IMG/VR virus record: IMGVR_UViG_2778261419_000003 | Location: 1 to 42,828 of that record | Origin: a virus | Lineage: Duplodnaviria; Heunggongvirae; Uroviricota; Caudoviricetes | Length of the DNA: 42,828 bases | Direction: 5' to 3' (one strand) | In this document: piece after piece, positions 1-12,551 of the stretch | Layout of the letters: every line of letters begins with the position of its first letter | Numbering within the stretch: the first letter of the stretch is position 1 | Notes under the pieces: model-generated | The model's database searches: none | Told to the model about the DNA's origin: nothing | What the model saw: only the letters and a program-made list of their open reading frames with translations | Made by a program: the position numbers and the translations under genes

Positions 1-1194
1 ATGATCACCGACACAAAGCTCAGGAAGGCGCTCGGCAAGAAAAGAGATGATATCGAGATTATTTCTGATTCGCACGGGCTCAACGCCAGAATCAGCCAGG
101 CCGGAAAAATATCATTTTTCTATCGGTATCGCTGGGCCGGTAAAGCGGTAAAACTCAATGTTGGTGATTATCCTGCAATGAGTATCACCCAGGCAAGAGA
201 GCGTCGCCAACAATTCAGAAACTGGTTAACTGAGGGACTGGATCCGCGAGAGCAGGTGAAGCTGGATAAGCAGACCCGACAGGAAGCGATGTCCGTTGCC
301 GAAGCGTTCAATTACTGGATTGAAAGGCACTGTATCGCTAACGGGCTAGTTAAAGTCGATTACTATCGCCAGGTGTTTGAGAAACATATCGCCGAACCGA
401 TGAAGAATGTCAAAGTCGATAACACAGCGAAAATGCACTGGATCAACGTCTTCGATTCTATAGAAAGCAGGGTGATGGCTCATTACATGCTTTCGCTGTG
501 CAAACGGGCGTTTAGGTTCTGCGTTAACAGAAGTGTGATCGCCTCAAACCCACTCGAGGGATTACTGCCATCTGATGTCGGGCAAAAGCCTAAAAAGAGA
601 ACTCGCAGGATGGACGATGACGATCTGCGCAAAATCTATCAGTGGTTGAAAAGCCATATGTCGATAGAGTCCGTTTTCCTGGTGAAATTTATTATGCTTA
701 CCGGATGCCGTACGGCTGAGATTCGACTTAGTGAGAGATCATGGTTTCGATTGGATGATAATGAGTGGGTCGTGCCTGCGGGCAGTTATAAAACTCGGGT
801 ACATATTAGAAGGGGACTCTCAGACGCCGCCGTTAACCTGGTCAGAAATCACCTCAAGAAAATAAACACCAATCACCTGGTGACTTCACAACGTAAAATT
901 GATGGCGGGATCAAAGATTCGCCCGTTCATTCACCTGTGGCATCCAATTACGCCCGTTCTATTTGGAATGGAACAGGTATGGCAGAGTGGTCGCTTCATG
1001 ATATGAGGCGGACGATAGCCACAAATCTCTCTGAGTTAGGTTGCCCGCCGCACGTAATTGAAAAGCTGCTCGGGCATCAGATGGTGGGGGTTATGGCGCA
1101 TTACAACCTTCATGACTATATCGATGATCAGAAACACTGGCTCCGCGTTTGGCAGAGCCATCTTGAAGAGATCATCGGAGAGCCCTTCAGTTAA
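1..1194 (+). CDS. int: Tyrosine site-specific integrase (P4-type)
   Basis: 397 aa ORF; C-terminal catalytic region with HDMRRT...LLGH...HY motifs typical of tyrosine recombinases; N-terminus resembles P4-family integrases; ORF begins at window position 1 so true start may lie upstream. Confidence 0.85.
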
Positions 1195-1433
1195 TTTATC
1201 TTCTTTTTATCCTCCCACTCTTTGATTGACTCAGAGCGCCAGCGGTTAGGGTTGCCGGGCCAGTCAGGGGGTGGGAACGGGCATACGAAGCCCCGAGGCA
1301 TTGTGTCTGCACTTTGCCATGACCAAAGGGTTTTGCGTGAAATTTTGTAGCGACTGGTCAGGTCTGACGTTACCAAAATATCATCCATAGCTCTCTCCAG
1401 TTGCCCGTTCGGGCCATTCAAAATCTTTTTCAA
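1191..1433 (-). CDS. Excisionase-like small DNA-binding protein (Xis/AlpA-like)
   Basis: 80 aa, convergent with int and overlapping its 3' end; W-rich, proline-containing small basic protein reminiscent of lambda Xis / AlpA; family assignment from memory only. Confidence 0.5.
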
Positions 1434-1672
1434 CCAACCTGCCCGGGCAGGGAGCGGAGACGGCGCATGCCTGTCATCGCCGTGGCCACGTAGCTCGCCT
1501 TGCGGTTCACTACCTCCACCCAGACCTTCACACCTTCAACTCTCACCGTGTACGTTTCCTTCATCTTGCTGCGTCCGTAGTCGCCGTAGCGTTCGTGATG
1601 AGTGGCCAGCGCGATGTCGCATGCCTGACGCGCTATCGGGGATTGCTGATTGCCGCGGTTAATCAGTTTCAT
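1430..1672 (-). CDS. Hypothetical early-left protein
   Basis: 80 aa ORF translationally coupled in the leftward operon; no recognised motif. Confidence 0.3.
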   Translation of the reverse strand: MKLINRGNQQSPIARQACDIALATHHERYGDYGRSKMKETYTVRVEGVKVWVEVVNRKASYVATAMTGMRRLRSLPGQVG

Positions 1673-1863
1673 GCTTCACCGCCATCTGGGTTGGATGATT
1701 GACGGAAAATTGCTCGAGACGGCGACCAATCGCAATATGTATCAGTTTCGGTATGCCCGAAAATTGTCTTACAGCGGCGGATATGGGCGCAGTCGCCGCA
1801 AGTCTTACCCTTCGGGAGTTTCATTTTGTCGGGGTCTGCCGGGTTATAATTCAGCTCAGTCAT
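1669..1863 (-). CDS. Small Cys/His-rich zinc-ribbon-like protein (paralog copy 1)
   Basis: Start ATG at 1861-1863 (MTELNYNPADPDKMKLP...CGDCAHIRRC...YCDWSPSR); about 64 aa; clear paralog of the ORF at 10709..10903. Confidence 0.5.
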   Translation of the reverse strand: MTELNYNPADPDKMKLPKGKTCGDCAHIRRCKTIFGHTETDTYCDWSPSRAIFRQSSNPDGGEA

Positions 1864-2200
1864 TCCAGGCCTCCAGCTCGTTCTGAATTTCCTCGTCGAT
1901 CTCGTCATTGGTGGCGTCTTCGTTTAGATAGTCGCGCGCCTCTTTGAGATACTGTTCTCGGCGTTCGTGGTACCAAGCAGAGAACTCCGGTGACCAGCCG
2001 CGACCATTACCTTGAAAATCAACCAGAGCGTTGTCCTCAGCCATACGCTCAACCATGCAGTCGGCAGTTGTCAGGGCGCATTCCCGGATGTAACCGCGAA
2101 GGTGGTGTTTGCGCCACCAAGGACTTACTTTCGAATCGCAACGTCCTTTGAACTCAATTTCCCAGCGGCGGATGCAGCGTGCGTTTAAAGATTTACTCAT
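1856..2200 (-). CDS. Hypothetical protein with acidic C-terminus
   Basis: 114 aa ORF in leftward operon between recT and the small Zn-ribbon gene; no recognised family. Confidence 0.4.
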   Translation of the reverse strand: MSKSLNARCIRRWEIEFKGRCDSKVSPWWRKHHLRGYIRECALTTADCMVERMAEDNALVDFQGNGRGWSPEFSAWYHERREQYLKEARDYLNEDATNDEIDEEIQNELEAWND

Positions 2201-2234
2201 CTCGTTACCGGGAGGGTTCGCCCTCCCGCCTCCC

Positions 2235-3326
2235 TTAGGCCACGTATTCCGGTTTCATATCCGCCAAGGTGATGCTGAACTGATCGTGCAGTTCGTCGCC
2301 CAGATGACGTTTTGCCGTTGCAAGAACTCGCTCAACTTCCCCAAACCGTTCAGCTGCATCCGGATCATCCGGAGACGGCAGGGAGTTTATCGCGGCTTCA
2401 ACCTTGTTACGTGAATCAACCAGGTAGTAGCGCTTCACTGCCTTATTCTTCAGCTCGGTGAACAGGGCAGATCCGAGCGTGGCCTTCGCGCTTTCGATAT
2501 CAGCACGCAGTGCTTTGGCGCTATCAACATCCTGTGCTGCCTCGATGCGCTCGCGGAAATCATCGGCAAGAGCGTCGATATTTACCGACGATTCGTGTGC
2601 GCTTTGCGTAGTTGTGACGGTGTCACCTGCGATTTCAGCAACGCTCATTCGTTGGGCTGAGCCAGGGTTAATAACTTTTTCTTCTCGTTCTTCGACTTCA
2701 TCGGCACTGTAAACACCAAGAATCACATCAGGGCAGTACAAGCGAGCCCAGCGCTTTACCGCGAGATAAGCGAGCTGCTGACGCGGATCACTTGCCCATA
2801 GTGTCGAATTACGAACCTGAGCCTGAGAAAGCATGAGTACCAGTTCGCGTGGCTCATCCTCGCCTTTCATCGTTGCCCACACACGAATTCCTACACCGGC
2901 CTCATCCTTTAAATCCCAACCGGGCGCGATGTACTTATTGCCTTTAGAACTGGTTCTCTCTACAAATCGACCAATGATGTTTTCCCATGGGCCAAACCAA
3001 TCGTAATGAAGGCGATCTTTTGTAGGCGACATGTTGGTAACAACCGCATTAACCAGTTGAGCTTCGTAACCCAACACTCCGCTATTACCGACGATGTGGG
3101 TCTTCTGAGCTACGGCAAAGGGGTCCATACCCCATCGTGCGGCCTGCATGACCACAGCCATGCAGGCATCTGGTTTTCCGCGGAAGTGGTCAGGTACAAA
3201 AGCGCCACTATTTGCCATCACTGTCGACAAGGTGCGTAGGCGGTCGAAAAGTTCCCCATTAGTCAAAATTGAGATGTTATCGATCATTTGCGTCTTGTTT
3301 TCGTTGGTAGTAATTGCAGTAGACAT
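2235..3326 (-). CDS. recT: RecT/Red-beta family single-strand annealing protein
   Basis: 363 aa; directly downstream of the RecE-like exonuclease in the same operon (Rac recE-recT synteny); SSAP-like conserved core; exact subfamily not verified. Confidence 0.7.
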   Translation of the reverse strand: MSTAITTNENKTQMIDNISILTNGELFDRLRTLSTVMANSGAFVPDHFRGKPDACMAVVMQAARWGMDPFAVAQKTHIVGNSGVLGYEAQLVNAVVTNMSPTKDRLHYDWFGPWENIIGRFVERTSSKGNKYIAPGWDLKDEAGVGIRVWATMKGEDEPRELVLMLSQAQVRNSTLWASDPRQQLAYLAVKRWARLYCPDVILGVYSADEVEEREEKVINPGSAQRMSVAEIAGDTVTTTQSAHESSVNIDALADDFRERIEAAQDVDSAKALRADIESAKATLGSALFTELKNKAVKRYYLVDSRNKVEAAINSLPSPDDPDAAERFGEVERVLATAKRHLGDELHDQFSITLADMKPEYVA

Positions 3327-3338
3327 GTTCTTTTCCCC

Positions 3339-6248
3339 TTATGCCTGAGTACGCAGCGCTTCAAGGCGGCGCAGGTCGAAGTCGTTCAGTTCGTCGGTGT
3401 AATCAGCGGTGATCGGCGCTGGCCATTCGCCAGTGTCAAAGCCGGTAGCGATAGCGCGCATCGCCTTGCGGTACTCGAGCATGCCCAGCTCTAGCAGTTC
3501 AGCGGATGCCTCGATGATGGCGATCCAGTGGTAGTTCTCGTCTTTGTTGACGAAAATCCAGAAGAACTGGTCAAGTGCCGCGGTCTCGCAATACATGGCG
3601 GCGCTCAGGTGATAGTCACGGTCGATGATTTCCCGGTGCAGTTTGGCGCGCAGACCTTCCTGCTTAATGTTCCACATGCTGATGGTTTTAAGGTCGGCAC
3701 CGATGCGTACCCCGTCCAAGTCGATCTCAAGGTCAGGACGCACGCGGACTTCAAGTCCGGTTTCGTCGTCAAAGCCAAAATAGCTCACCTCAACAGCGCG
3801 GCTCGGGTGCTGGAGTAGCATCCCGGCGGTTGGGTGCTGGAGCAGGGCTTTCTGAATGGCCAGTGCGGTGCACAGTTGCTGGCGGGTGACCAGAACTTTT
3901 CCTTGCGGATTCTCACGCCAGGCATCCAGCAATTCGTCGGCGAAGACGGCGTCCGGATTAACAGACTTCACGGCCTGTATCAGGTCTGATTTGGTACCGG
4001 ACACTTTCAGCGGTTGCGGCTTCTGCGCTTCCTGGGCCACCAGGTCAGGATTGATGATTGCCAGCTGCTCGAGTAACGCATCACGGCTACCGCTGGTTTT
4101 CACCTGTGCTGGCAGAGTGGCGTTGTATTCCTTGATGCAGGCTTTCATCGCCGCTGCGGTCTGCTTCTGGTCCGCTTCGATACGCTGATACTCTTCAGGA
4201 AGCGACATATAGCTCTGACCAGTTTCCTCGACTGAACCACCCAGCGGCACCTGTGCTGGCAGAGTGGCGTTGTATTCTTCGAGCAAGGCTTTGATCTCAT
4301 CTGCACTCAGCAGCGCTTGCAGACCTGCGTTGTAATCATCGATAAACGCGCGGATCGTTGCCGTCGTGGTGAATGCGCCTTCCGGAATTACCGGTTCAAC
4401 GCTGAATTCCTCATCGAGCTGCTCTGGCTGCAACGCCAGTGCATGAACCAGGTTACCCATGTCCAGCACCGGAGAACGCTCTTTGGTGATCGTTTTGGCA
4501 ACGTGGCGCGCGTTGAAGTACATCAGGCTAACGCGGGCATCTTTTACCTGCGTGCTGCTGATCCCGTTCGCTGCGTGATAAACCTCGTTCGGCAGACCTT
4601 CATAGCGACCTGGCTCGAAGTAAGCGGGGTAAACAACAGCTGGTTCGTCAGATTGGGCATCTGGCTCGGTTTGTGCCAAAACTGGTTCAGTCTGGTTTAC
4701 AGAATCGCTATTTTGGGCGACAGAATCCGTATTCTGGTTTACATCGGCTTGCTGGCTGGTATCTGATTCTTCACCAGTTTCCATACTGCTTTTGCCTGAC
4801 TGCACTTCAGTACCAGCCTGTTTTTCATCACTGACAGTTTCTTGAACCTGCACATTGCTGGTGGTCTCCGTAGCCTTTTTCGTGCCATGAGTAGCTGAGT
4901 TCTGCAGCAAAGCCGTAACGTCGAATATTCCGTTGCCGACATTTTTAACCAGTTCTTGTTCGACTTTCTGCGGTTGTGCCGCAGCTTCCTCTGCGCGGCG
5001 GCGTGCTCCTTCTTCACGCACGCGTTGCAGGTTCTCTTCGTGAGTGCAGAAGGATTTGCGCGGAGACTCCTTACTTTCAGGTTGGTGAATTTCCTGAGTT
5101 GCTACTTCAGCTTCATGCAACGGCAATAACTCAACCGCAGAGTTGAATTCAGCAGTCATGGTCTGGTTAACAAATTCCAGGTGAGCGACAGGGGTTAGAT
5201 GAATATTTTCCGGCGCGATACGTACCAGGTTAAAAATAGCCGTGCGGTTAACGCCAAGAGCGCCAGGCTGATTGCGCAGAATGCTGCTCCATGATTTCCA
5301 CGGTTCTTCTTTTTTGGTCACGATTTCTTTGGCGCGACGAAGAATGCTGCCTGGGATCTCGAAGTGGTTGAAGTCCATAGGCAGAAGGGCACAGGCAATC
5401 TCTAAATCGAGAGTGTCCAGGGTGTGGTGTGCGTCAGGTCCACGGTCAGTGACGTAACCGCCGTTGGCATTGGTTCCGGAATCAGTACGCTGAACACTAC
5501 TGATGTGATTACCGGCAGCCCATTCACGCGCCAGGATGCCACGGTCAATGTAATCAGTAGCCGCCCACATTCTGGTGAAACGGAGTACCAGCGCGAGTTC
5601 GTGACGCTTGTCCTGGCTGAACACTTTGCGAATGGCATCGGTGTAGCGCCACAGGTCTTTGGTGTCGTAACCCTTCACTTCCGGGCAGTTCTCAGCAGCT
5701 AACAGCAAGTTCTGGACGTAACTGTTATCAGTGTCCATCTCCAGCGCGCCGATAGCTTCGTACTCTTCGCGGGTTACGTGGTGGCGCAGTTCGTCGGCGG
5801 TGAACTGGGAAAGCAGTTGCTTACGAAACGGCATCTGCACTACCGGGTAGAGGGTTGAGTCGTCGTCGTGTTCGTCCAGCGTGATGCCAGCGGTTTCTGG
5901 CAGCGTTGACTCAGTAGTTATGTGACTATCAACGGTCTGAGCCGTTTTCTCGTCAGAGTTTTCAGCTGTGACTTTTGGCAGCCAGGTGCGGTCATCGTTC
6001 TGCAGTTCGTAGCGTTCGCACCAGGTGTAATCCACTGCGCCTTCTTCCGGCAGGTCGTCATATACCGGGAAATCGGTGCGGATTGGTTTGGCATAATCTT
6101 TACCGCGGCCAGTTTCTTCAATTCCGGCTTCTTCCAGTGCCACATCGAGTTGGAGATTGGCGCGCGCTACACTTTTCGCAGTGAACCAAATCACTGCATC
6201 TTTCTTGCCAGACTTCTGACTGGCTTTTATCAGATGGAAAAATTCCAT
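3339..6248 (-). CDS. recE: Exonuclease VIII (RecE-like)
   Basis: N-terminal region matches the E. coli RecE N-terminus as recalled (DLPEEGAVDYTWCERYELQNDDRTW); large acidic/Q-rich linker; conserved C-terminal nuclease domain; start ATG 6246-6248 with AAGAGGA SD chosen over the extended ORF start at 6353. Confidence 0.8.
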   Translation of the reverse strand: MEFFHLIKASQKSGKKDAVIWFTAKSVARANLQLDVALEEAGIEETGRGKDYAKPIRTDFPVYDDLPEEGAVDYTWCERYELQNDDRTWLPKVTAENSDEKTAQTVDSHITTESTLPETAGITLDEHDDDSTLYPVVQMPFRKQLLSQFTADELRHHVTREEYEAIGALEMDTDNSYVQNLLLAAENCPEVKGYDTKDLWRYTDAIRKVFSQDKRHELALVLRFTRMWAATDYIDRGILAREWAAGNHISSVQRTDSGTNANGGYVTDRGPDAHHTLDTLDLEIACALLPMDFNHFEIPGSILRRAKEIVTKKEEPWKSWSSILRNQPGALGVNRTAIFNLVRIAPENIHLTPVAHLEFVNQTMTAEFNSAVELLPLHEAEVATQEIHQPESKESPRKSFCTHEENLQRVREEGARRRAEEAAAQPQKVEQELVKNVGNGIFDVTALLQNSATHGTKKATETTSNVQVQETVSDEKQAGTEVQSGKSSMETGEESDTSQQADVNQNTDSVAQNSDSVNQTEPVLAQTEPDAQSDEPAVVYPAYFEPGRYEGLPNEVYHAANGISSTQVKDARVSLMYFNARHVAKTITKERSPVLDMGNLVHALALQPEQLDEEFSVEPVIPEGAFTTTATIRAFIDDYNAGLQALLSADEIKALLEEYNATLPAQVPLGGSVEETGQSYMSLPEEYQRIEADQKQTAAAMKACIKEYNATLPAQVKTSGSRDALLEQLAIINPDLVAQEAQKPQPLKVSGTKSDLIQAVKSVNPDAVFADELLDAWRENPQGKVLVTRQQLCTALAIQKALLQHPTAGMLLQHPSRAVEVSYFGFDDETGLEVRVRPDLEIDLDGVRIGADLKTISMWNIKQEGLRAKLHREIIDRDYHLSAAMYCETAALDQFFWIFVNKDENYHWIAIIEASAELLELGMLEYRKAMRAIATGFDTGEWPAPITADYTDELNDFDLRRLEALRTQA

Positions 6249-6386
6249 GTGAGATCCTCTTTTTTGAGTGTTAGAATCCCCGGGCCAGAGATAGCGCCCA
6301 TTGGATGTTTTTTGGTTTGGTATAAATTCCGGTGTAACTTTGGTCGGTGGCACCGGACGTGAATCCCGCCTTGCGCGGGTTTTACG

Positions 6387-6548
6387 TTAGCCTTCGTGAG
6401 CCATCTGGTCGTGCGAAGCGCAACGTTTGGAGCAATACTCTTTTTCTTTGCGCGCCAGCTGTGAGCCGTTGCGATAGAGAAGGGTGCTCTTGATTACTTC
6501 CTCCGTTTTAACCGGCTTGCCGCAATATCCGCATTTCTTGTCTAACAT
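6387..6548 (-). CDS. Small zinc-ribbon protein (53 aa; possibly YdaE-like)
   Basis: Not in the ORF track (<60 aa). ATG 6546-6548 preceded by GGAGGA SD; translation MLDKKCGYCGKPV...EYCSKRCASHDQMAHEG has CxxC...CxxxC zinc-ribbon spacing; sits upstream of recE as ydaE does in Rac. Confidence 0.4.
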   Translation of the reverse strand: MLDKKCGYCGKPVKTEEVIKSTLLYRNGSQLARKEKEYCSKRCASHDQMAHEG

Positions 6549-6559
6549 GACATCCTCCG

Positions 6560-6766
6560 CTAGTGGCTGAGTCCATGCCCCAGACCGTTCAGATAAACTT
6601 CAACCAGCAAATCCTTGGTGTAAGTCATTTCTACGCCGCGATGCAGATACAAACGTCCGCGAGCGTTAGCTGATGCCGTCCAGGTTGAGTCTTTGTGTTT
6701 GACGAGCATCCCCGGCTGAACTGCGCCGCGGTTTACTGTCTGTGTACCGTAGTGCTGATGAACCAT
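6560..6766 (-). CDS. Hypothetical small protein (occupies the kil-like position)
   Basis: 68 aa from ATG 6764-6766 with GGAG SD; the longer 116 aa ORF would need a TTG start; function unknown. Confidence 0.35.
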   Translation of the reverse strand: MVHQHYGTQTVNRGAVQPGMLVKHKDSTWTASANARGRLYLHRGVEMTYTKDLLVEVYLNGLGHGLSH

Positions 6767-7018
6767 GATGTTCTCCAGTTTTTCTGAGTGAACTTCGCTG
6801 GTGGTGCCGCGGCGCTGATCTTCACGGTTGAGCGTTTTAACTCTGCAATTCACCACCGCGAAGCTCACTCTGTGCTTTGCCCTTGTCGCCAGGCTGGCGG
6901 AACGTTTCAAACCTACTGCGCGTTAATCTCACCACCTCATTCCGGTCTTCGTATGCCCCGGACGGCTACTTCGTGGGCTCCATGCCTGGGTGGTTCGTGG
7001 TGCGTCTTGGTGAGTTAG

Positions 7019-7082
7019 ATTAAATCACTGGTTTATATATATGTCAACTTAAGGTTGGTGTTAATTGTAAATCTGAGGTTTA
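7019..7082 (-). promoter_or_regulatory. Leftward early promoter (PL-like) with two operator sites (OL)
   Basis: Minus-strand -35 TTGACA (7042-7047), 17-nt spacer, -10 TTTAAT (7019-7024); 15-bp pseudo-palindromic operators TAAATcactgGTTTA (7021-7035) and TAAATctgagGTTTA (7068-7082) match the OR sites. Confidence 0.5.
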
Positions 7083-7121
7083 TGTGGCTGGGTTTTGTGA
7101 CACGTCTGCAGAATCGCAGGC

Positions 7122-7148
7122 AAAAAAAATCCCGACGCGTGGTCGGGA
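7122..7148 (-). terminator. Rho-independent terminator ending the repressor-linked operon
   Basis: Plus-strand A8 run then TCCCGAC-GCGTG-GTCGGGA; on the minus strand a 7-bp GC-rich stem followed by U8. Confidence 0.6.
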
Positions 7149-7221
7149 TGAGAAGGTTCGGGGAAGGCGACAGAGTTAGTAGCTGAGAGCCTTATAACTC
7201 AGGCGTATTGACCAAATCTGA

Positions 7222-7743
7222 CTAAAAGAAGTGCATAAAAGCTTTGTACAGCCCTGTACCAATGGCGATAATCGCAGGGACACCTAAGAGAATCGCCAAT
7301 TTAGCATCAGAGATTTTCTTGTCCACTGTGTCTGATGAGGGCTTTTTGTCTACAGACTCTTTGATACTAGACAGCCTCTCCAAAACTACAGCCATATTTT
7401 TGTCCAGTGAATTCACTGTCGTATCAACTTTTGAAACTGTGTTTTTTATCTCGGCAACATCTTTCTTGATGTGGGCAACTTCAACCTCAAGAATAGCCAA
7501 TCTCTTTTCCATGTCGTCACCTCCATCTTCAGTTGACGTATGAATGATTTCAGTATCATCCATAGCAACTGATGTGACAATCCGTTTTTGTTTATCCGAA
7601 GCGGCAAAACTACAAGCACCCATAAGGAAGGTTGCTTGGCTCGAAGCTACTGATGAAAACTCTAAGCCTACTGTAGCTCCGCTATGGTCTGAATATGCAA
7701 TCAATAACTTCCCTTCACCAAGAGATGATTGAGCCGCATCCAT
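7222..7743 (-). CDS. Coiled-coil protein with single C-terminal transmembrane helix (immunity-region accessory gene B)
   Basis: ATG at 7741-7743, 7 nt after the upstream stop, with GAGGAA SD; about 173 aa; central heptad-like coiled coil; C-terminal hydrophobic segment AILLGVPAIIAIGTGLY; AT-rich by eye. Confidence 0.5.
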   Translation of the reverse strand: MDAAQSSLGEGKLLIAYSDHSGATVGLEFSSVASSQATFLMGACSFAASDKQKRIVTSVAMDDTEIIHTSTEDGGDDMEKRLAILEVEVAHIKKDVAEIKNTVSKVDTTVNSLDKNMAVVLERLSSIKESVDKKPSSDTVDKKISDAKLAILLGVPAIIAIGTGLYKAFMHFF

Positions 7744-7749
7744 CAATTA

Positions 7750-8031
7750 TTATTCCTCAAACATACTTTTTAAGGATTGATAAAAATCATAAGCCTTTTG
7801 TTTGCTTAAAGTCACAGACACAACTTTGGTTCGCTGCATGCCCTTGACGACTATATCCGCATTATCCGTACCGATGATCGGGCTGCTATTCAGGAACACA
7901 AAATTGTAAACTTCGTAACCGGCATTTTGTGTGCCGATTGTTACGACACCGTCAGCATTGGTCTCGATGAAATTTTTCGCTTCGATTACATCATTAAGAT
8001 GCATAAGTTCGACGGTTGTTTCTTTAGACAC
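7750..8031 (-). CDS. Hypothetical soluble protein (immunity-region accessory gene A)
   Basis: 93 aa; GTG start 8029-8031 preceded by GGAGGA SD at 5-nt spacing; tightly coupled to downstream gene B; AT-rich by eye. Confidence 0.45.
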   Translation of the reverse strand: MSKETTVELMHLNDVIEAKNFIETNADGVVTIGTQNAGYEVYNFVFLNSSPIIGTDNADIVVKGMQRTKVVSVTLSKQKAYDFYQSLKSMFEE

Positions 8032-8095
8032 CGAATCCTCCAGAAGATATTAAATCTTGAAATATTTTTATTACATGGAATTAGATACTACTGGT

Positions 8096-8485
8096 TTAGG
8101 TTTGCTCACCTTGCGATCGAATCCGACCCTTCATGTACTTCTCGTACAGCTCATCTAACTCTTTCAGGCGAAGCGCAAAAATGCGGAGCATGTTCTGCTG
8201 CTCTTCTTCCGGTAACTGGCGGTAGAGCTCGAGCAAACGCTGTTCGTCCGGTTTGAGACCGTCTTTCTCCCCAACGTCTTCACCGAGTAGCCAGGCGACA
8301 GAAATACCAACAGCGTCGGCTATGGCCAGTGCCGATTTCTTACTAATCACGCCTTTTTTGAACCAGCCGTTTACGGCCTGAGGGGTGACTCCAGCTATTC
8401 TTGCCATGTCTGCTTTGGTAACGCCGCGATCAGTGATCTCAGTAAGGCGCTCCACCAGAACGAGGTTGGGTTCTTCTTTTCTCAT
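8096..8485 (-). CDS. CI-like prophage repressor (HTH, XRE family)
   Basis: ATG 8483-8485; about 129 aa; N-terminal HTH (TKADMARIAGVTPQAVNGWFKKG); divergent from the cro-like gene across an operator-containing intergenic region. Confidence 0.8.
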   Translation of the reverse strand: MRKEEPNLVLVERLTEITDRGVTKADMARIAGVTPQAVNGWFKKGVISKKSALAIADAVGISVAWLLGEDVGEKDGLKPDEQRLLELYRQLPEEEQQNMLRIFALRLKELDELYEKYMKGRIRSQGEQT

Positions 8486-8587
8486 ATGGTCATTGTAAAT
8501 ATTTGGTTTATGCACGCAATAAATCCAAAGTTTGCATGAAGTATAAATCTGTGGTTTACTTCTGCTATCAATAAGCAGGAGAAGCAC
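8486..8587. promoter_or_regulatory. Divergent PRM/PR-like region with three operator sites (OR)
   Basis: 15-bp sites TAAATatttgGTTTA (8496-8510), TAAATccaaaGTTTG (8520-8534), TAAATctgtgGTTTA (8544-8558), spaced exactly 24 bp; candidate PR -35 TTGCAT (8532-8537) / -10 TTTACT (8555-8560); candidate PRM -10 TACAAT on minus strand (8492-8497) abutting the repressor ATG. Confidence 0.55.
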
Positions 8588-8806
8588 ATGTCCGCACTCG
8601 ATAAAGCAATTAAAGCCGCTGGCTCTGCCAGAAAGCTCAGCATCGCGCTTGGTGTGACGAGTATGTCTGTAAGTCATTGGAAGAATCGTGACCAAGGGAT
8701 CGTCCCGCCAAGCTATATCTTCCCGATTTTCAAAATGACAGGCGTAACCCCCCACGAGCTGCGCCCTGATCTCTATCCAAATCCCACTGACGGATTACCA
8801 AAGTAG
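8588..8806 (+). CDS. Cro-like HTH regulator (YdaS-like)
   Basis: 72 aa; AGGAG SD; HTH segment ARKLSIALGVTSMSVSHWK; divergent from repressor. Confidence 0.75.
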   Translation: MSALDKAIKAAGSARKLSIALGVTSMSVSHWKNRDQGIVPPSYIFPIFKMTGVTPHELRPDLYPNPTDGLPK

Positions 8807-8817
8807 GAGCACTGACA

Positions 8818-9375
8818 ATGCAAACACTTTCTTTTCAACAGAATAACAGAGCGCCATCAGAGCACCTGAAATTCCAGTATCAACACAGTGAGGCTGAAGG
8901 CCAGCCGGTCGATCACCGGGCTATCTGTTCTGCCGTCCGCGCCTGGGCGGCGGCAGAGGGCCGCGTGGCGGTCGCTCTGGCGATTAAAGAGGCTGCCGAA
9001 CAGGCCGAGCTTGACAGCATTGACATGACCGGCAGCGCCGATGTGTGGAACGTGAAGCTGTTTCGCTGGCTGGACAACCACGAGAAATCACCGGCCTACC
9101 GGGCGAACGTCGAGCAGCTGGCGCCGGTAATAATTTCGGTTCTGCCGCTGGCGTACCGGGATCGCGTGATTAAGCACGACTGCTTTGCGGTTCGTGTCGC
9201 CAGGTCGGTGAAAGAAGACGCTGAGGCGATACAGGCTGTCGTCCTCAAAGCCCCCAGACACGAACGGATGAAGGAAATCAGCGAGAGCATCGTAGCCAAG
9301 CTCTACCTGGACGGACCTGATTCTGTGGCGCCCATTATGGCGATGGTTACAACGATGCTGGGTGGTGCGCTATGA
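8818..9375 (+). CDS. YdaT-like protein (CII-position regulator)
   Basis: 185 aa immediately after the cro-like gene with AGGAG SD; position and size as for ydaT of Rac-like prophages; sequence family not verified. Confidence 0.4.
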   Translation: MQTLSFQQNNRAPSEHLKFQYQHSEAEGQPVDHRAICSAVRAWAAAEGRVAVALAIKEAAEQAELDSIDMTGSADVWNVKLFRWLDNHEKSPAYRANVEQLAPVIISVLPLAYRDRVIKHDCFAVRVARSVKEDAEAIQAVVLKAPRHERMKEISESIVAKLYLDGPDSVAPIMAMVTTMLGGAL

Positions 9376-9459
9376 CGGGCTCAGAAATGGCGAAAGCCGC
9401 GGTGCTCGAACACCAACGGCTTTCAGGTGCAAAAACTGTGCGTAATTGCGGAGAACAGT

Positions 9460-10371
9460 ATGTCAAATACCGCTGAAATATTCAAATTCCCCACACAGCA
9501 GGGGAAACAGGAGAGCAGCATGGCTGAACTGGAGAAAGGCTATTTGCGCCTGGCCAACCAGATTCAGGATGCCCTGTGTATCGTCGAACTATCCGGGCGC
9601 GAGTTCCGGGTGCTGAATGCTATCGTTCGTCTGACCTATGGCTGGTCTAAGAGTTCTGACCGCATCGCCAATAGCCTCATTGCAGATAAAACGACGCTGA
9701 AGGTGAAACACGTCTCTGAAGCCGTGTTGAGCCTTGCCTATCGGAACATCATCATCCTGCGCCGCATTGGGCAAACCAGATACATAGGGATTAATACCAG
9801 CCTGGATAAATGGGCGTATACCAAGCCAAATTGCATGAAGTGTCCAGCGGTGTTTCCTGCTGCTGAAGTTGTCACATGGGTTATTACCATCCCTGAATTC
9901 AGGGATAGCAATTTTACCCCTTCAATCATCCCTGAAAACGGGGATAACCATCCCCAAAAACAGGGAGAGGTATCCCTGAAAACAGGGAACACCAAAGACA
10001 TTCTTCCAAATACAAATATAAATACAGATCTAACCCCCTCTAATCCCCCAAAGGGGAAGGGTAAGTTTGACCCGCTGACGATTCCCGTTCCTGAGTGGCT
10101 TGATTCTGTGTCCTGGAGTGAGTGGGTGGCCTACCGCCAACAGTCTGGCAAAGCCATCAAGACCGAAATGACGGTCACCAAAGCATTCAAGTTGCTCAAG
10201 GCTTGCCTGGACGCTGGGCATGACCCCGTTGATGTGATCAACACCAGTATCGCCAACGGGTACCAGGGACTGTTTAAACCGAAGTTCGCTCTCAACGCTC
10301 GCAAAACGGGCAGGGATGTGAACCGCATTTCTGAGCCAGACAAAACAATCCCACCCGGATTCAGGGGGTAA
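9460..10371 (+). CDS. O: Replication initiator protein O-like
   Basis: N-terminal domain matches lambda O (FRVLNAIVRLTYGWSK vs lambda FKVLLAILRKTYGWNK); ATG 9460 with GGAGAA SD preferred over the GTG at 9427; ori iterons lie inside the gene. Confidence 0.8.
   Translation: MSNTAEIFKFPTQQGKQESSMAELEKGYLRLANQIQDALCIVELSGREFRVLNAIVRLTYGWSKSSDRIANSLIADKTTLKVKHVSEAVLSLAYRNIIILRRIGQTRYIGINTSLDKWAYTKPNCMKCPAVFPAAEVVTWVITIPEFRDSNFTPSIIPENGDNHPQKQGEVSLKTGNTKDILPNTNINTDLTPSNPPKGKGKFDPLTIPVPEWLDSVSWSEWVAYRQQSGKAIKTEMTVTKAFKLLKACLDAGHDPVDVINTSIANGYQGLFKPKFALNARKTGRDVNRISEPDKTIPPGFRG
9889..10030. repeat. Lambda-type replication origin: four 18-bp iterons plus AT-rich tract inside the O gene
   Basis: ATCCCTGAATTCAGGGAT (9889-9906), ATCCCTGAAAACGGGGAT (9928-9945), ATCCCCAAAAACAGGGAG (9950-9967), ATCCCTGAAAACAGGGAA (9972-9989), then AT-rich CAAATACAAATATAAATACAG; resembles lambda ori iterons. 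Confidence 0.7.
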
Positions 10372-10373
10372 GC

Positions 10374-10712
10374 ATGCCAAGACCAAATACACCAGAAGAG
10401 CAGGCGGCACTTATCCGGGTGATCATCGAAGAGGTGAAAATCCGTGGACGCTTAACCGTTAGCGAGGCATCACAGATGTTGTCGCTGCATCGTCAGACTG
10501 CTGAGAAGTATTTCCGCGTAGCAGCCGAACGCGGCGAACTCATTCGTTACGGTCGTCTAGGTTTGTTCAGGGACCCAAAGGCTGTAATTGATTTCGATCT
10601 CCAACGATTCTCATACGGTTCGAGTAAGCCTCTGATTGAGTTACCAGCAGATTTTCGGGGAAGTGCGGTTATGCGTCGGGTTATAGATATCGTGGGGAGG
10701 ATGCCAGCATGA
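10374..10712 (+). CDS. Hypothetical replication-module protein
   Basis: 112 aa ORF directly downstream of the O-like gene; no recognised family; no lambda P / DnaC-like loader is seen in this window. Confidence 0.35.
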   Translation: MPRPNTPEEQAALIRVIIEEVKIRGRLTVSEASQMLSLHRQTAEKYFRVAAERGELIRYGRLGLFRDPKAVIDFDLQRFSYGSSKPLIELPADFRGSAVMRRVIDIVGRMPA

Positions 10713-10903
10713 CAACCGAAAAACTGGCGTTGAATTATGACCCAGCCGATCCCGACAAGATGCGATTACCGGCTGGCATAACATGTGGTAATTGCCACCA
10801 TATCCATCGTTGTAAAGCAATTTTTGGACACACGGAGTCGAACACATATTGCGATTGGTCACCGTCGCGATTTACTGCTGGCATTGGCGTGAAGGGGGAT
10901 TGA
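10709..10903 (+). CDS. Small Cys/His-rich zinc-ribbon-like protein (paralog copy 2)
   Basis: 64 aa, ...LNYDPADPDKMRLPAGITCGNCHHIHRCKAIFGHTESNTYCDWSPSR...; paralog of the 1669..1863 product. Confidence 0.5.
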   Translation: MTTEKLALNYDPADPDKMRLPAGITCGNCHHIHRCKAIFGHTESNTYCDWSPSRFTAGIGVKGD

Positions 10904-10904
10904 G

Positions 10905-11111
10905 ATGATTGCTGCAAACTACACAGTCAATCTCTACTGCGACTGCGATGAGTGCACCGGTAAGCAATGGGGAAGCCCAGATTTTGCCGAGTACATTGGA
11001 AATTCATGGTCTGGCTGCGCTAAAGAGGCGCGGCCACATGGCTGGCGTATCAGCAAGGATAGAACGCGAGCGTTCGCGCCAGGTCACAAGATTTCGAGGA
11101 CTAACCCATGA
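10905..11111 (+). CDS. Hypothetical small Cys-rich protein
   Basis: 68 aa ORF with CDCDEC motif; coupled between neighbouring genes. Confidence 0.35.
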   Translation: MIAANYTVNLYCDCDECTGKQWGSPDFAEYIGNSWSGCAKEARPHGWRISKDRTRAFAPGHKISRTNP

Positions 11112-11479
11112 CAACTATTACCAAAAAGCAACGCGCAGAGCTACGCATGAAGTTTGGCGGTCGCTGTACTTATTGTGGATGCGAACTACCAGAGAAAGGC
11201 TGGCATGCTTACCATGTAAAACCGGTCATTCGTTTTGATGGAAATATGCTTCACCAGGAACGTGACGATATATCAAACATGGTTCCAGCATGCCACCCAT
11301 GCAATCTGCACAAGCATTGCAGTAGCCTGGAAGATTACCGGCGAATTATCGGTGATGGTCGTCGTGAATTCCTTGTGTCCGGGAAAGGCAAAGCGCTGGT
11401 TCGTATGGGATTGGTTGAAATGAAATCTGACCCAGTGGTGTTCTGGTTCGAAAAATATCAAGAAGGAGCGTCAGCATGA
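11108..11479 (+). CDS. HNH endonuclease
   Basis: 123 aa; CTYCGC...H-x-H...ACHPCNLHK arrangement typical of the HNH zinc-finger nuclease motif. Confidence 0.75.
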   Translation: MTTITKKQRAELRMKFGGRCTYCGCELPEKGWHAYHVKPVIRFDGNMLHQERDDISNMVPACHPCNLHKHCSSLEDYRRIIGDGRREFLVSGKGKALVRMGLVEMKSDPVVFWFEKYQEGASA

Positions 11480-11955
11480 CAACTAACAACCACCCGGCGC
11501 ACGGTCCTGTATCACTCGATCGCCTGCACCAGATACGTGAAATACTCAGCAAAGCAGCAGCACAAAGCGACGGCGGTAATGTCGGCTATGCGATGGCTGA
11601 TGCTGTGAAGGTGATTAATGGAGTTCTGGAGTCGATGGCCCGTGAGCAAGTACGCCGTGAGCATGCTACATGGTCACAGGCTACTTTCGGCGATGTCGGT
11701 CCAGTTGGTCCTCTGAAGCACCTTTCTAAAGAAGCGCTCGAGGCTGCTGCTGAACCTGGCGACCTTAGCGAATGGGCTGACATGCAATTCCTGTTATGGG
11801 ATACGCAGCGTCGTGCCGGTATCAGTGATGAACAGATTACCCAAGCGATGGTAGAGAAGTTGGCGATTAACAAACAGCGCAAATGGCCTGAGCCGAAAGA
11901 CGGTGAGCCATGTGTACATGACAGAATGAATCATGAGCGTATTGATTTTAGCTGA
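11476..11955 (+). CDS. DUF550-like protein (putative dATP/dGTP pyrophosphohydrolase)
   Basis: 159 aa; resemblance to the DUF550 family common in lambdoid nin regions is from memory and not verified. Confidence 0.4.
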   Translation: MTTNNHPAHGPVSLDRLHQIREILSKAAAQSDGGNVGYAMADAVKVINGVLESMAREQVRREHATWSQATFGDVGPVGPLKHLSKEALEAAAEPGDLSEWADMQFLLWDTQRRAGISDEQITQAMVEKLAINKQRKWPEPKDGEPCVHDRMNHERIDFS

Positions 11956-12083
11956 CTCACCGTAGCAACAATGAATAATGTTTCGAGTGTATTTGATTAT
12001 GCATTGTGAGATGGACATTACTGAGAGTGTAAATCTTAGTTTATGATAATGGACAGCAATGAAATTATACCCGGAGAGCGATA

Positions 12084-12551
12084 ATGGATACTAAGAATGA
12101 AGTTGTGCAACATTCATCACCCCAGCAGGCAGTGAGAGTATTTGCCGAGGCCCTTGAACAAGCCGTTAGGGAGAACACTATAGAAGATTCGAACTCTCGG
12201 TCGCCTGGAAAAACTGTGCTTGATTCAAATTCAGAAATAAAATCTTCAACAATTGTCGGTGCTGGTGGATTGATCGGAACTGCTGGCGTTGCAGCCACTA
12301 CAGCTTCGGCCGTTACTGGTGGGTCAGCTGCTACTATAATGTCTGCAACAGCTGGAACAGTTGGAGCCAGTGTTGCATCTTTAGCAGGCGCAGCAGGAAC
12401 GGCAGGGGCTGCGTCGATCTCATCCGGAATGGCAGCCGTTGGTTCGGTTGTTGGAGGAGGAATGGCCGCCGGGGCAATAATCACAGCGGTGGCACCTGTC
12501 GCAGCAGTCGCAAGTGTTGCTTACTTGGCTTTTAAGCTTTTTGAAGATTAA
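12084..12551 (+). CDS. Gly/Ala/Ser/Thr-rich glycine-zipper membrane protein
   Basis: 155 aa; about 50 aa polar N-terminus then a long low-complexity G/A/T/S/V region ending in hydrophobic AVAPVAAVASVAYLAF; set in an AT-rich island. Confidence 0.45.
   Translation: MDTKNEVVQHSSPQQAVRVFAEALEQAVRENTIEDSNSRSPGKTVLDSNSEIKSSTIVGAGGLIGTAGVAATTASAVTGGSAATIMSATAGTVGASVASLAGAAGTAGAASISSGMAAVGSVVGGGMAAGAIITAVAPVAAVASVAYLAFKLFED

Follow-up and report, generated by a model that had tools for sequence, protein, structure and literature searches.

One described counterpart of the locus treated here is the prophage Rac in Escherichia coli K-12, whose genes stand in the order xisR, rcbA/ydaC (DUF4060), ralR (encoding 64 amino acids, aa), recT, recE, racC, ydaE and kilR. 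RalR was first described as a restriction alleviation protein, Lar, according to the citation of King and Murray (1995) in PMC4041452, and was later described as a DNase toxin controlled by the small RNA (sRNA) RalA (PMC4041452). The sequence of RalR, MRYDNVKPCPFCG..CNGC, contains a zinc ribbon of the CxxC..CxxC type (CPFC..CNGC). We have analysed a stretch of Caudoviricetes DNA of 42,828 nucleotides (nt) (IMG/VR virus record IMGVR_UViG_2778261419_000003, positions 1 to 42,828; hereafter the window), in which the gene for another small four-Cys protein occupies the slot of ralR, and a second gene of the same family is found on the opposite strand. These two genes, referred to as copies A and B, are as follows.

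1669..1863, minus strand: copy A, a 64-aa member of the Cys4 family phrog_10154, '..PSRA(V/I)F' subtype
10709..10903, plus strand: copy B, a 64-aa member of the same family (phrog_10154), '..PSRF' subtype

The translations of 64 aa each, MTELNYNPADPDKMKLPKGKTCGDCAHIRRCKTIFGHTETDTYCDWSPSRAIFRQSSNPDGGEA for copy A (cysteines Cys22, Cys25, Cys31 and Cys44) and MTTEKLALNYDPADPDKMRLPAGITCGNCHHIHRCKAIFGHTESNTYCDWSPSRFTAGIGVKGD for copy B, can be aligned without a gap over LNY(N/D)PADPDKM..CDWSPSR, with 37 identities in 47 residues (79%; BLASTP, E 2e-30). The first-pass annotation of this DNA had described two 64-aa open reading frames (ORFs) in opposite orientation that encode Cys-rich paralogues, one in each early operon, and this description is borne out if the term paralogue is taken in its loose sense: the translations were confirmed, copy A lies in the leftward arm near int, and copy B lies in the rightward arm after the genes for replication protein O and DUF977. 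The shared 47-residue core is not of low complexity.

Both copies look like real, translated genes on the basis of several signals in the DNA and of their recurrence in other genomes. A GGAGG Shine-Dalgarno sequence is located 6–8 nt 5' of the ATG in both. The copy A start shares 8 nt with the end of the upstream gene, and the end of copy A in turn runs into the beginning of the DUF4060 gene; for copy B, start codon and DUF977 stop overlap in an ATGA. The Prokaryotic Genome Annotation Pipeline (PGAP) has called both genes with the same coordinates in other genomes (WP_016156723.1 for copy A in locus L001 and WP_072133343.1 for copy B in locus L002), and the exact protein was found in 1235 assembly-index blocks for copy A and in 400 for copy B. 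Over the 47-codon core, the nonsynonymous and synonymous differences per site (Nei-Gojobori) were pN 0.13 and pS 0.81, respectively, indicating strong purifying selection on both copies after an old split. A promoter and terminator scan indicated no separate transcription unit for either copy; promoter-like sites were at the background level and terminator-like sites somewhat above it. The two genes thus show no promoter signal of their own and are evidently coupled in translation to their neighbours, as judged from the overlaps.

Comparison of the two genes with each other and with related prophages clearly indicates that the copies diverged anciently and did not arise from a duplication inside the prophage. 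The core DNA is 72% identical with a longest exact run of 17 nt and saturated synonymous sites, and the DNA flanks of the two copies do not align to each other, the likeness being confined to the coding core. In 9 of 10 sampled loci with the exact copy B protein, the DUF4060 gene directly abuts RecT and copy A is lacking; conversely, copy B was found in none of the 10 sampled loci with exact copy A, where other replication modules (lambda-P, DnaC-like or DnaT-like) are present. The sole double-copy locus among the samples is L059 (contig AAYTEI010000002.1 of GCA_016647465.1), which is 99.985% identical to positions 709-20903 of the window and thus represents the same prophage. A member could be detected in 24 of 5,426 complete E. 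coli genomes, in no case together with a second one. Because synonymous sites are saturated, the flanks are unrelated and each copy occurs alone elsewhere, the view of the first-pass annotation that the gene had been duplicated within the present prophage should be abandoned. The genes surrounding the two copies explain how they came together.

1430..1672, minus strand: DUF4060 gene, homologue of Rac rcbA/ydaC (Pfam PF13269, E 6e-35), the downstream border of the variable slot
1856..2200, minus strand: 114-aa gene, phrog_6675, function unassigned in PHROG, forming with copy A a two-gene cassette between RecT and DUF4060
2235..3326, minus strand: RecT recombinase (Pfam PF03837, E 5e-41), the upstream border of the variable slot
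9427..10371, plus strand: replication protein O-like gene (Pfam PF04492), the PGAP start in relatives corresponding to window position 9460
10374..10712, plus strand: DUF977/Ren-like DNA-binding protein (Pfam PF06163, phrog_2391), whose stop overlaps the copy B start
10905..11111, plus strand: 68-aa Cys-rich ORF, phrog_926, with the motif CDCDEC..C..H, immediately 3' of copy B

Copy A and the 114-aa gene fill exactly the rcbA-recT interval, which is empty in most of the prophages with copy B; the 114-aa gene accompanies copy A in L001, L003, L059 and L061-L070, and is missing where copy A is missing. Copy A therefore evidently travels in a two-gene cassette that occupies the rcbA-recT slot on the leftward side. 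For copy B, the vehicle is evidently the O/DUF977 replication module in the rightward early operon, and the 68-aa phrog_926 ORF follows copy B at the DNA level in all of the 10 sampled copy-B loci. Since the copies ride separate mosaic modules, they must have been brought together by lambdoid module shuffling, and the gene maps clearly indicate that mosaic recombination of this kind joined both modules in one lineage. We regard this evolutionary part of our reading as highly probable.

The two coding cores also form an inverted repeat, and are the sole inverted repeat of 30 nt or longer in positions 1-12500 of the window, with arms that are 73% complementary.

1714..1853: left arm of the inverted repeat, 140 nt, which is the copy A coding core
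10731..10870: right arm of the inverted repeat, which is the copy B coding core

RecA-dependent recombination in E. coli requires approximately 23–27 bp of identity, and inversion between the copies is not expected because their longest exact match of 17 nt is below this length. The suggestion that the repeats might mediate rearrangement has accordingly found no backing: no rearrangement was seen, and in the one further locus with both copies the orientation is unchanged.

Several observations on the slot and its surroundings may be added here. At least three states of the rcbA-recT slot can be distinguished: empty, occupied by ralR (with RalA antisense to rcbA), or occupied by phrog_6675 plus copy A (window 1430-2235; L071, Rac, 2532-2985; L051-L060). 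Positions 1-1679 of the window, comprising int, xis and the DUF4060 gene, are 97–99.9% identical to phages phi80 and mEpX1, and this homology ends at the copy A stop codon. In E. coli EH09-18-41 (L067, 9665-10195), the phrog_6675 gene and copy A are read as one fused ORF of 176 codons; since the two genes overlap by 8 nt in different frames in the window, the fusion probably reflects a frameshift or a sequencing indel. The enterotoxigenic strain H10407 (NC_017633.1, ~2873000-2873951) contains a third variant of the family in E. coli, which shares 91% identity with copy A over 73% of the gene; an HNH endonuclease gene akin to that at window 11108-11479 lies some 750 bp away.

Both copies match the profile of phrog_10154, a PHROG family with no annotation, end to end (E 3.1e-33 over residues 1-58 for copy A; E 9.9e-26 over residues 8-56 for copy B), and phrog_10154 is thus the family itself. 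Scans of both copies and their neighbours against Pfam (E <= 1), NCBIfam and PADLOC gave no match for the family, and no literature on it was found. Word-indexed searches collected 213 close and 1330 broader clusters at 90% identity, all of which were unnamed or called 'hypothetical protein' and none of which had a Pfam domain; an exhaustive profile search with a cut-off of E <= 1e-3 gave 1433 clusters at 50% identity. The members are mostly stand-alone proteins of 52–130 aa, and no recognisable extra domain was found when the longer ones (130–275 aa) were scanned for fused domains. Among tandem and extra-Cys members (P0192, P0197, P0200, P0229, P0230, L039 and P0179), we observed one protein of 266 aa in which the domain occurs twice in tandem, and a subfamily with an extra N-terminal GCCxDKxCTxxTC motif and 8 or 9 Cys in total, which suggests a second metal site.

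The family is almost confined to prophages of Proteobacteria (gamma-, beta- and some alpha-), with hosts in Enterobacterales, Pseudomonas, Stenotrophomonas/Lysobacter/Rhodanobacter, Bordetella/Castellaniella and Sphingobium/Bradyrhizobium, and in a few metagenome-assembled genomes. Only 5 of 50,697 deposited phage genomes carry a member (Hafnia phage yong2, two Bordetella phages, and Pseudomonas phage phiAH14a in two records), and the family is much larger in prophages and metagenomes. Plasmid records, which were checked as an anti-defence context for their leading regions, are nearly devoid of it (3 of 72,556).

In close relatives the stretch NYDPxDPDKMxLPxGxTCGDCxHIxRCKxIFGHxETDTYCDWSPSRF is nearly frozen. 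Among 75 diverse members, L16, P17, C22, C25, C31 and C44 are invariant and G19, T21, G36, D45, P48 and F53 nearly so, and the domain can be delimited to about 45 residues consisting of the Cys4 core followed by D-W/F-x-P-x-R-F. In distant members, N/Y/F stand in place of one of the two His residues and A/V/C/R in place of the other. Because both are replaceable, the ligand set appears to be Cys4, with the spacing C-x2-C-x5-C-x12-C, rather than the Cys/His set that the first-pass annotation had assumed; the alignments establish the four Cys as the only universal set of residues resembling ligands. The tails after ..PSRF vary, many of them ending in ..EGGAA, ..GGEA, ..EGAAQ or ..REGAK, and it is pure speculation that a C-terminal Ala-Ala could be a protease tag of the ClpXP type. 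Two AlphaFold2 (AF2) models have a mean predicted local distance difference test (pLDDT) of 75.6 and 73.8, with values of about 88–90 for core residues 20-45; the more diverse alignment used for the second run did not improve the confidence. Little regular structure is predicted in these models, essentially one short helix bearing Cys31.

We grouped the ORFs from 48 genome loci into clusters and assigned annotations to the genes next to the family members; a fixed partner gene was sought in these loci and not found. The apparent partner neighbours grouped as 'cluster 0' proved to be an artefact of chaining through a methyltransferase ORF. Members occur in three settings: in leftward early operons, beside RecT, YqaJ or DUF2303 genes and upstream of int; in rightward early operons, after O, P, DnaC-like or DnaB genes; and in Mu-like prophages of Pseudomonas, after MuA transposase or GemA/Mor. 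The subtype (..PSRAVF versus ..PSRF) was considered as a marker of the operon side and discarded, both subtypes being found on either side. The lack of a fixed partner together with the independence of subtype from operon side suggests that the gene moves freely and needs only early expression. As for recurrent company, DNA methyltransferases are the most conspicuous of the identifiable neighbours: a C5 DNA methylase gene is located within about two genes on the same strand (6 hits among ORFs, or 8 loci in the cluster maps), MT-A70 was found once, and a small S-adenosylmethionine (SAM)-dependent methyltransferase in five loci. A genuine Lar homologue was found near the family member twice, as the gene directly downstream in Serratia (L007) and at a distance of about 1 kb downstream in Rhodanobacter (L012). 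In a Bordetella phage an HNH gene directly follows the family member, as one is also found near copy B.

On the basis of these results, we favour a reading of phrog_10154 proteins as early metal-cluster mini-proteins of mosaic origin with an accessory role in phage DNA transactions, and give this overall picture a probability of roughly 0.5. Both copies would be made early after induction, and the four Cys would hold a metal centre, which may be zinc or a [4Fe-4S] cubane like that of high-potential iron-sulfur proteins (HiPIPs). This centre would fold a mini-protein that is otherwise poor in structure and presumably too small for an enzyme. Since neither an enzymatic domain nor an obligatory gene partner was found, the free-standing protein would act by binding a macromolecule, probably a well-conserved one of the host or phage, during early lytic growth. 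Its accessory role would be to protect or promote phage DNA transactions, through anti-restriction, anti-defence or host takeover; such a role appears most likely in view of the company of recombination and replication genes, orphan DNA methyltransferases, Lar and the semi-essential region of Mu, and of the location of copy A in the slot of RalR. A specific anti-restriction or host-takeover function, argued from analogy of position, is a tentative suggestion and on the doubtful side.

Several points weigh against this reading. A methyltransferase or Lar gene is adjacent in only about one quarter of the 48 loci, a share to be read as company and not as demonstrated enrichment, and no partner gene is obligatory or conserved among these loci. 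The co-occurrence with a real Lar gene speaks against a simple functional equivalence to Lar. The mechanism is drawn from context and size only, since neither a homologue with a name nor a significant match in structure was found: Foldseek searches against PDB (twice) and BFVD gave nothing at E < 1, and PDB sequence searches with two family profiles gave only chance matches to WD40/Apaf-1 and no HiPIP. The very strong conservation of the sequence may just as well stem from what a metal cluster demands as from a conserved target. Expression of both copies, moreover, is deduced from the Shine-Dalgarno sites and gene overlaps.

The alternative that survives best derives the family from the HiPIP fold: the proteins would be a cytoplasmic version of it carried by phages, with a [4Fe-4S] cluster and a redox role, as an electron carrier or a redox/oxygen sensor, and not simple binders. 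HiPIPs were picked for testing after the Foldseek lists had been seen, and this post hoc choice has to be kept in mind throughout. In these lists the HiPIP structures 1isu and 1hpi rank 4 and 6 for the first AF2 model and 1isu ranks 1 for the second, but at non-significant E values of 4.8–7 and template-modelling (TM) scores of 0.31–0.36; a cyanophage HiPIP appears, also without significance, in the BFVD list. We collected 120 HiPIPs, verifying the R. tenuis and C. vinosum sequences against PDB, and hhalign with three family profiles placed Cys22, Cys25, Cys31 and Cys44 on the four cluster ligands of HiPIPs with a single deletion of 9 residues between the second and third Cys. The flanks are similar (GK-x-C-x2-C, C-(K/Q)-x-(I/F)-x-G and (Y/W)-C), and the profile of close relatives (A2) additionally aligned LNY on the ..KY.. 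motif of HiPIPs. None of 300 shuffles of all columns attained the score of 18.3 (probability 6.6%, pairwise E 0.006), and 2 of 300 did when the Cys columns were kept fixed, but the probabilities were only 1–7% overall. Aromatic residues lie near the Cys (Y6, F35, Y43 and W46), as they do in HiPIPs, and weak matches to the 2Fe-2S domain FhuF_C were found in 7 of the 75 diverse members.

Against the HiPIP derivation stands the lack of any match to Pfam HIPIP (PF01355) for either copy or any of the 75 diverse members at E <= 5, and likewise the lack of HiPIPs in the PDB profile searches mentioned above. The spacing between the second and third Cys is 5 in the family versus 13–16 in the aligned HiPIPs, and no redox enzyme occurs among the conserved neighbours. 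There is no room for a twin-arginine translocation (Tat) signal, because the conserved core begins at residue 4 or 8 of a hydrophilic 64-aa protein. The HiPIP relatives that we retrieved have 95–146 aa, about 30–60 aa more than the mature chains of 62–85 aa, and one of them is named a Tat signal protein; their extra length is consistent with signal peptides. Weighing both sides, we consider the derivation with its redox role unlikely. The likeness, a weak but consistent signal from alignments and models, is better taken as a lead, by which the protein does not become a HiPIP; through this signal a [4Fe-4S] centre appears about as plausible as zinc.

A second alternative takes copy A as a functional stand-in for RalR/Lar, acting in restriction alleviation or as a small DNase toxin, and copy B as a second dose or a specificity variant. 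The first-pass annotation had pointed out the similar position of RalR/Lar, and in this respect it was more accurate than it claimed, since copy A with the 114-aa gene stands in the exact rcbA-recT slot of ralR, between DUF4060 and RecT; the likeness, on present sequence comparison, is positional only. Besides the slot, the stand-in can draw on the length of 64 aa and the four Cys in both proteins, on the variable content of the slot (empty, RalR or cassette), on the two activities that PMC4041452 relates for RalR, restriction alleviation by way of its citation of King and Murray (1995) and DNase toxicity, and on the orphan methyltransferases beside family members in several loci. The two proteins are, nevertheless, not homologous: Lar_restr_allev (PF14354) matches neither copy (Pfam, E <= 1), hhalign of RalR with the family profile gave a probability of 0.4%, and the ligand pattern of the family, CxxC-x5-C-x12-C, differs from the CxxC..CxxC of RalR. 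Genuine Lar genes downstream of members in L007 and L012 suggest different jobs for the two proteins, and most family members are located outside the rcbA-recT slot. Neither a RalA-like RNA nor any other Rfam family was found at threshold in the window, the presence of RalA in Rfam being unchecked. Such a substitution for RalR is, by analogy, distinctly unlikely.

Two further proposals appear improbable to a similar degree. According to one, the protein is a small zinc-finger regulator that binds nucleic acid, like Ogr/Delta or TraR/DksA-type proteins, and tunes early transcription, replication or recombination. The CxxC knuckle, followed by a short helix with the third Cys and conserved Arg/Lys (HIRRCK), would fit this proposal, as would the constant association with replication, recombination and transposition modules; however, no Pfam zinc-finger family matches at E <= 1 (whole-Pfam scans at this threshold gave no match of the copies to Ogr-Delta PF04606, TraR-DksA PF01258 or WhiB-like PF02467, and among the 75 diverse members only scattered weak matches, to FhuF_C and zf-CCHC_6, were seen), the net charge calculated from the sequence is nearly neutral, the gene is not accompanied by any conserved DNA repeat or operator-like site, and the location varies freely between operons, unlike that of a dedicated regulator. 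According to the other, phrog_10154 would be a new phage-specific class of cytoplasmic [4Fe-4S] mini-proteins with a truncated HiPIP-like fold, made early and disabling or hijacking a conserved host function such as a DNA-targeting defence, the two copies covering two variants of the target; we hold this to be very doubtful. The weakest explanation, a recent inverted duplication through which the 8.9-kb immunity region lying between the copies would be inverted, can appeal to the two cores being the only inverted repeat in the region, but is effectively refuted by their 72–73% identity with a longest run of 17 nt, saturated synonymous sites, unrelated flanks, the occurrence of each copy alone in many related prophages, the same orientation in L059 and the RecA requirement stated above.

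The remaining assigned genes of the two arms complete the map of the window.

1-1194, plus strand: int
1191-1388/1433, minus strand: xis
3339-6353, leftward arm: RecE
6560-6910, leftward arm: Kil
11108-11479, plus strand, rightward arm: HNH endonuclease
11476-11955, plus strand, rightward arm: DUF550 dATP/dGTP pyrophosphohydrolase

At the head of the rightward operon, as in Rac, there appear to be YdaS/YdaT-like genes (Cro-like and 'toxin YdaT'; 8588-8806 and 8818-9375, plus strand); the assignment draws on the listed ORFs, on the almost identical locus L059 and on the way PGAP has annotated relatives. For K-12, PMC5700377 reports toxicity of both YdaS and YdaT.

The presence of two copies in one prophage is, in the light of these results, a by-product of ordinary lambdoid mosaicism and deserves little weight; what remains beyond mosaicism is a widespread, highly conserved and uncharacterised family of small Cys4 phage proteins. 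Small early phage proteins in variable slots have been the source of many anti-defence and host-takeover factors, and this family, with about 1,400 clusters at 50% identity, strong conservation, absence from Pfam and NCBIfam, and the RalR/Lar slot for copy A, becomes a reasonable candidate for screening. A HiPIP-like Fe-S cluster, if really present, would be uncommon as a cofactor among phage accessory proteins.

In comparison with known systems, RalR/Lar of Rac is alike in its slot, its length of 64 aa, its four Cys and the early leftward operon that it shares with copy A, and is unlike phrog_10154 in sequence and profile, in its zinc ribbon and in its pairing with the RalA sRNA. HiPIPs are alike in their size of about 60 aa, in having little secondary structure, and in four Cys in the same order with similar flanks; they differ from the family in that no hidden Markov model match connects the two, and in that the family has a shorter loop between the second and third Cys, no Tat signal, so that it would be cytoplasmic, and a phage-encoded setting with no electron-transfer partners nearby. 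The triplet C-x2-C-x5-C is the [4Fe-4S]-binding spacing of WhiB-like proteins, EndoIII/MutY and AddB/Cas4 nucleases, in which the fourth Cys is N-terminal to the triplet. The family has the same triplet, but its fourth Cys lies 12 residues C-terminal to it and there is no match to the Pfam Whib family. YdaE, NinF and phrog_926, which are small Cys-rich early proteins of lambdoid phages, are alike in size (~50–70 aa), Cys richness and location in early operons, the YdaE-family genes (K-12 ydaE being annotated as 'zinc-binding protein') lying between recE and kilR in related prophages, whereas their sequences and Cys spacings are unrelated to those of phrog_10154. The family, known so far only as an anonymous PHROG, may thus belong to a familiar kind, the small metal-binding early phage proteins, possibly with an Fe-S twist.

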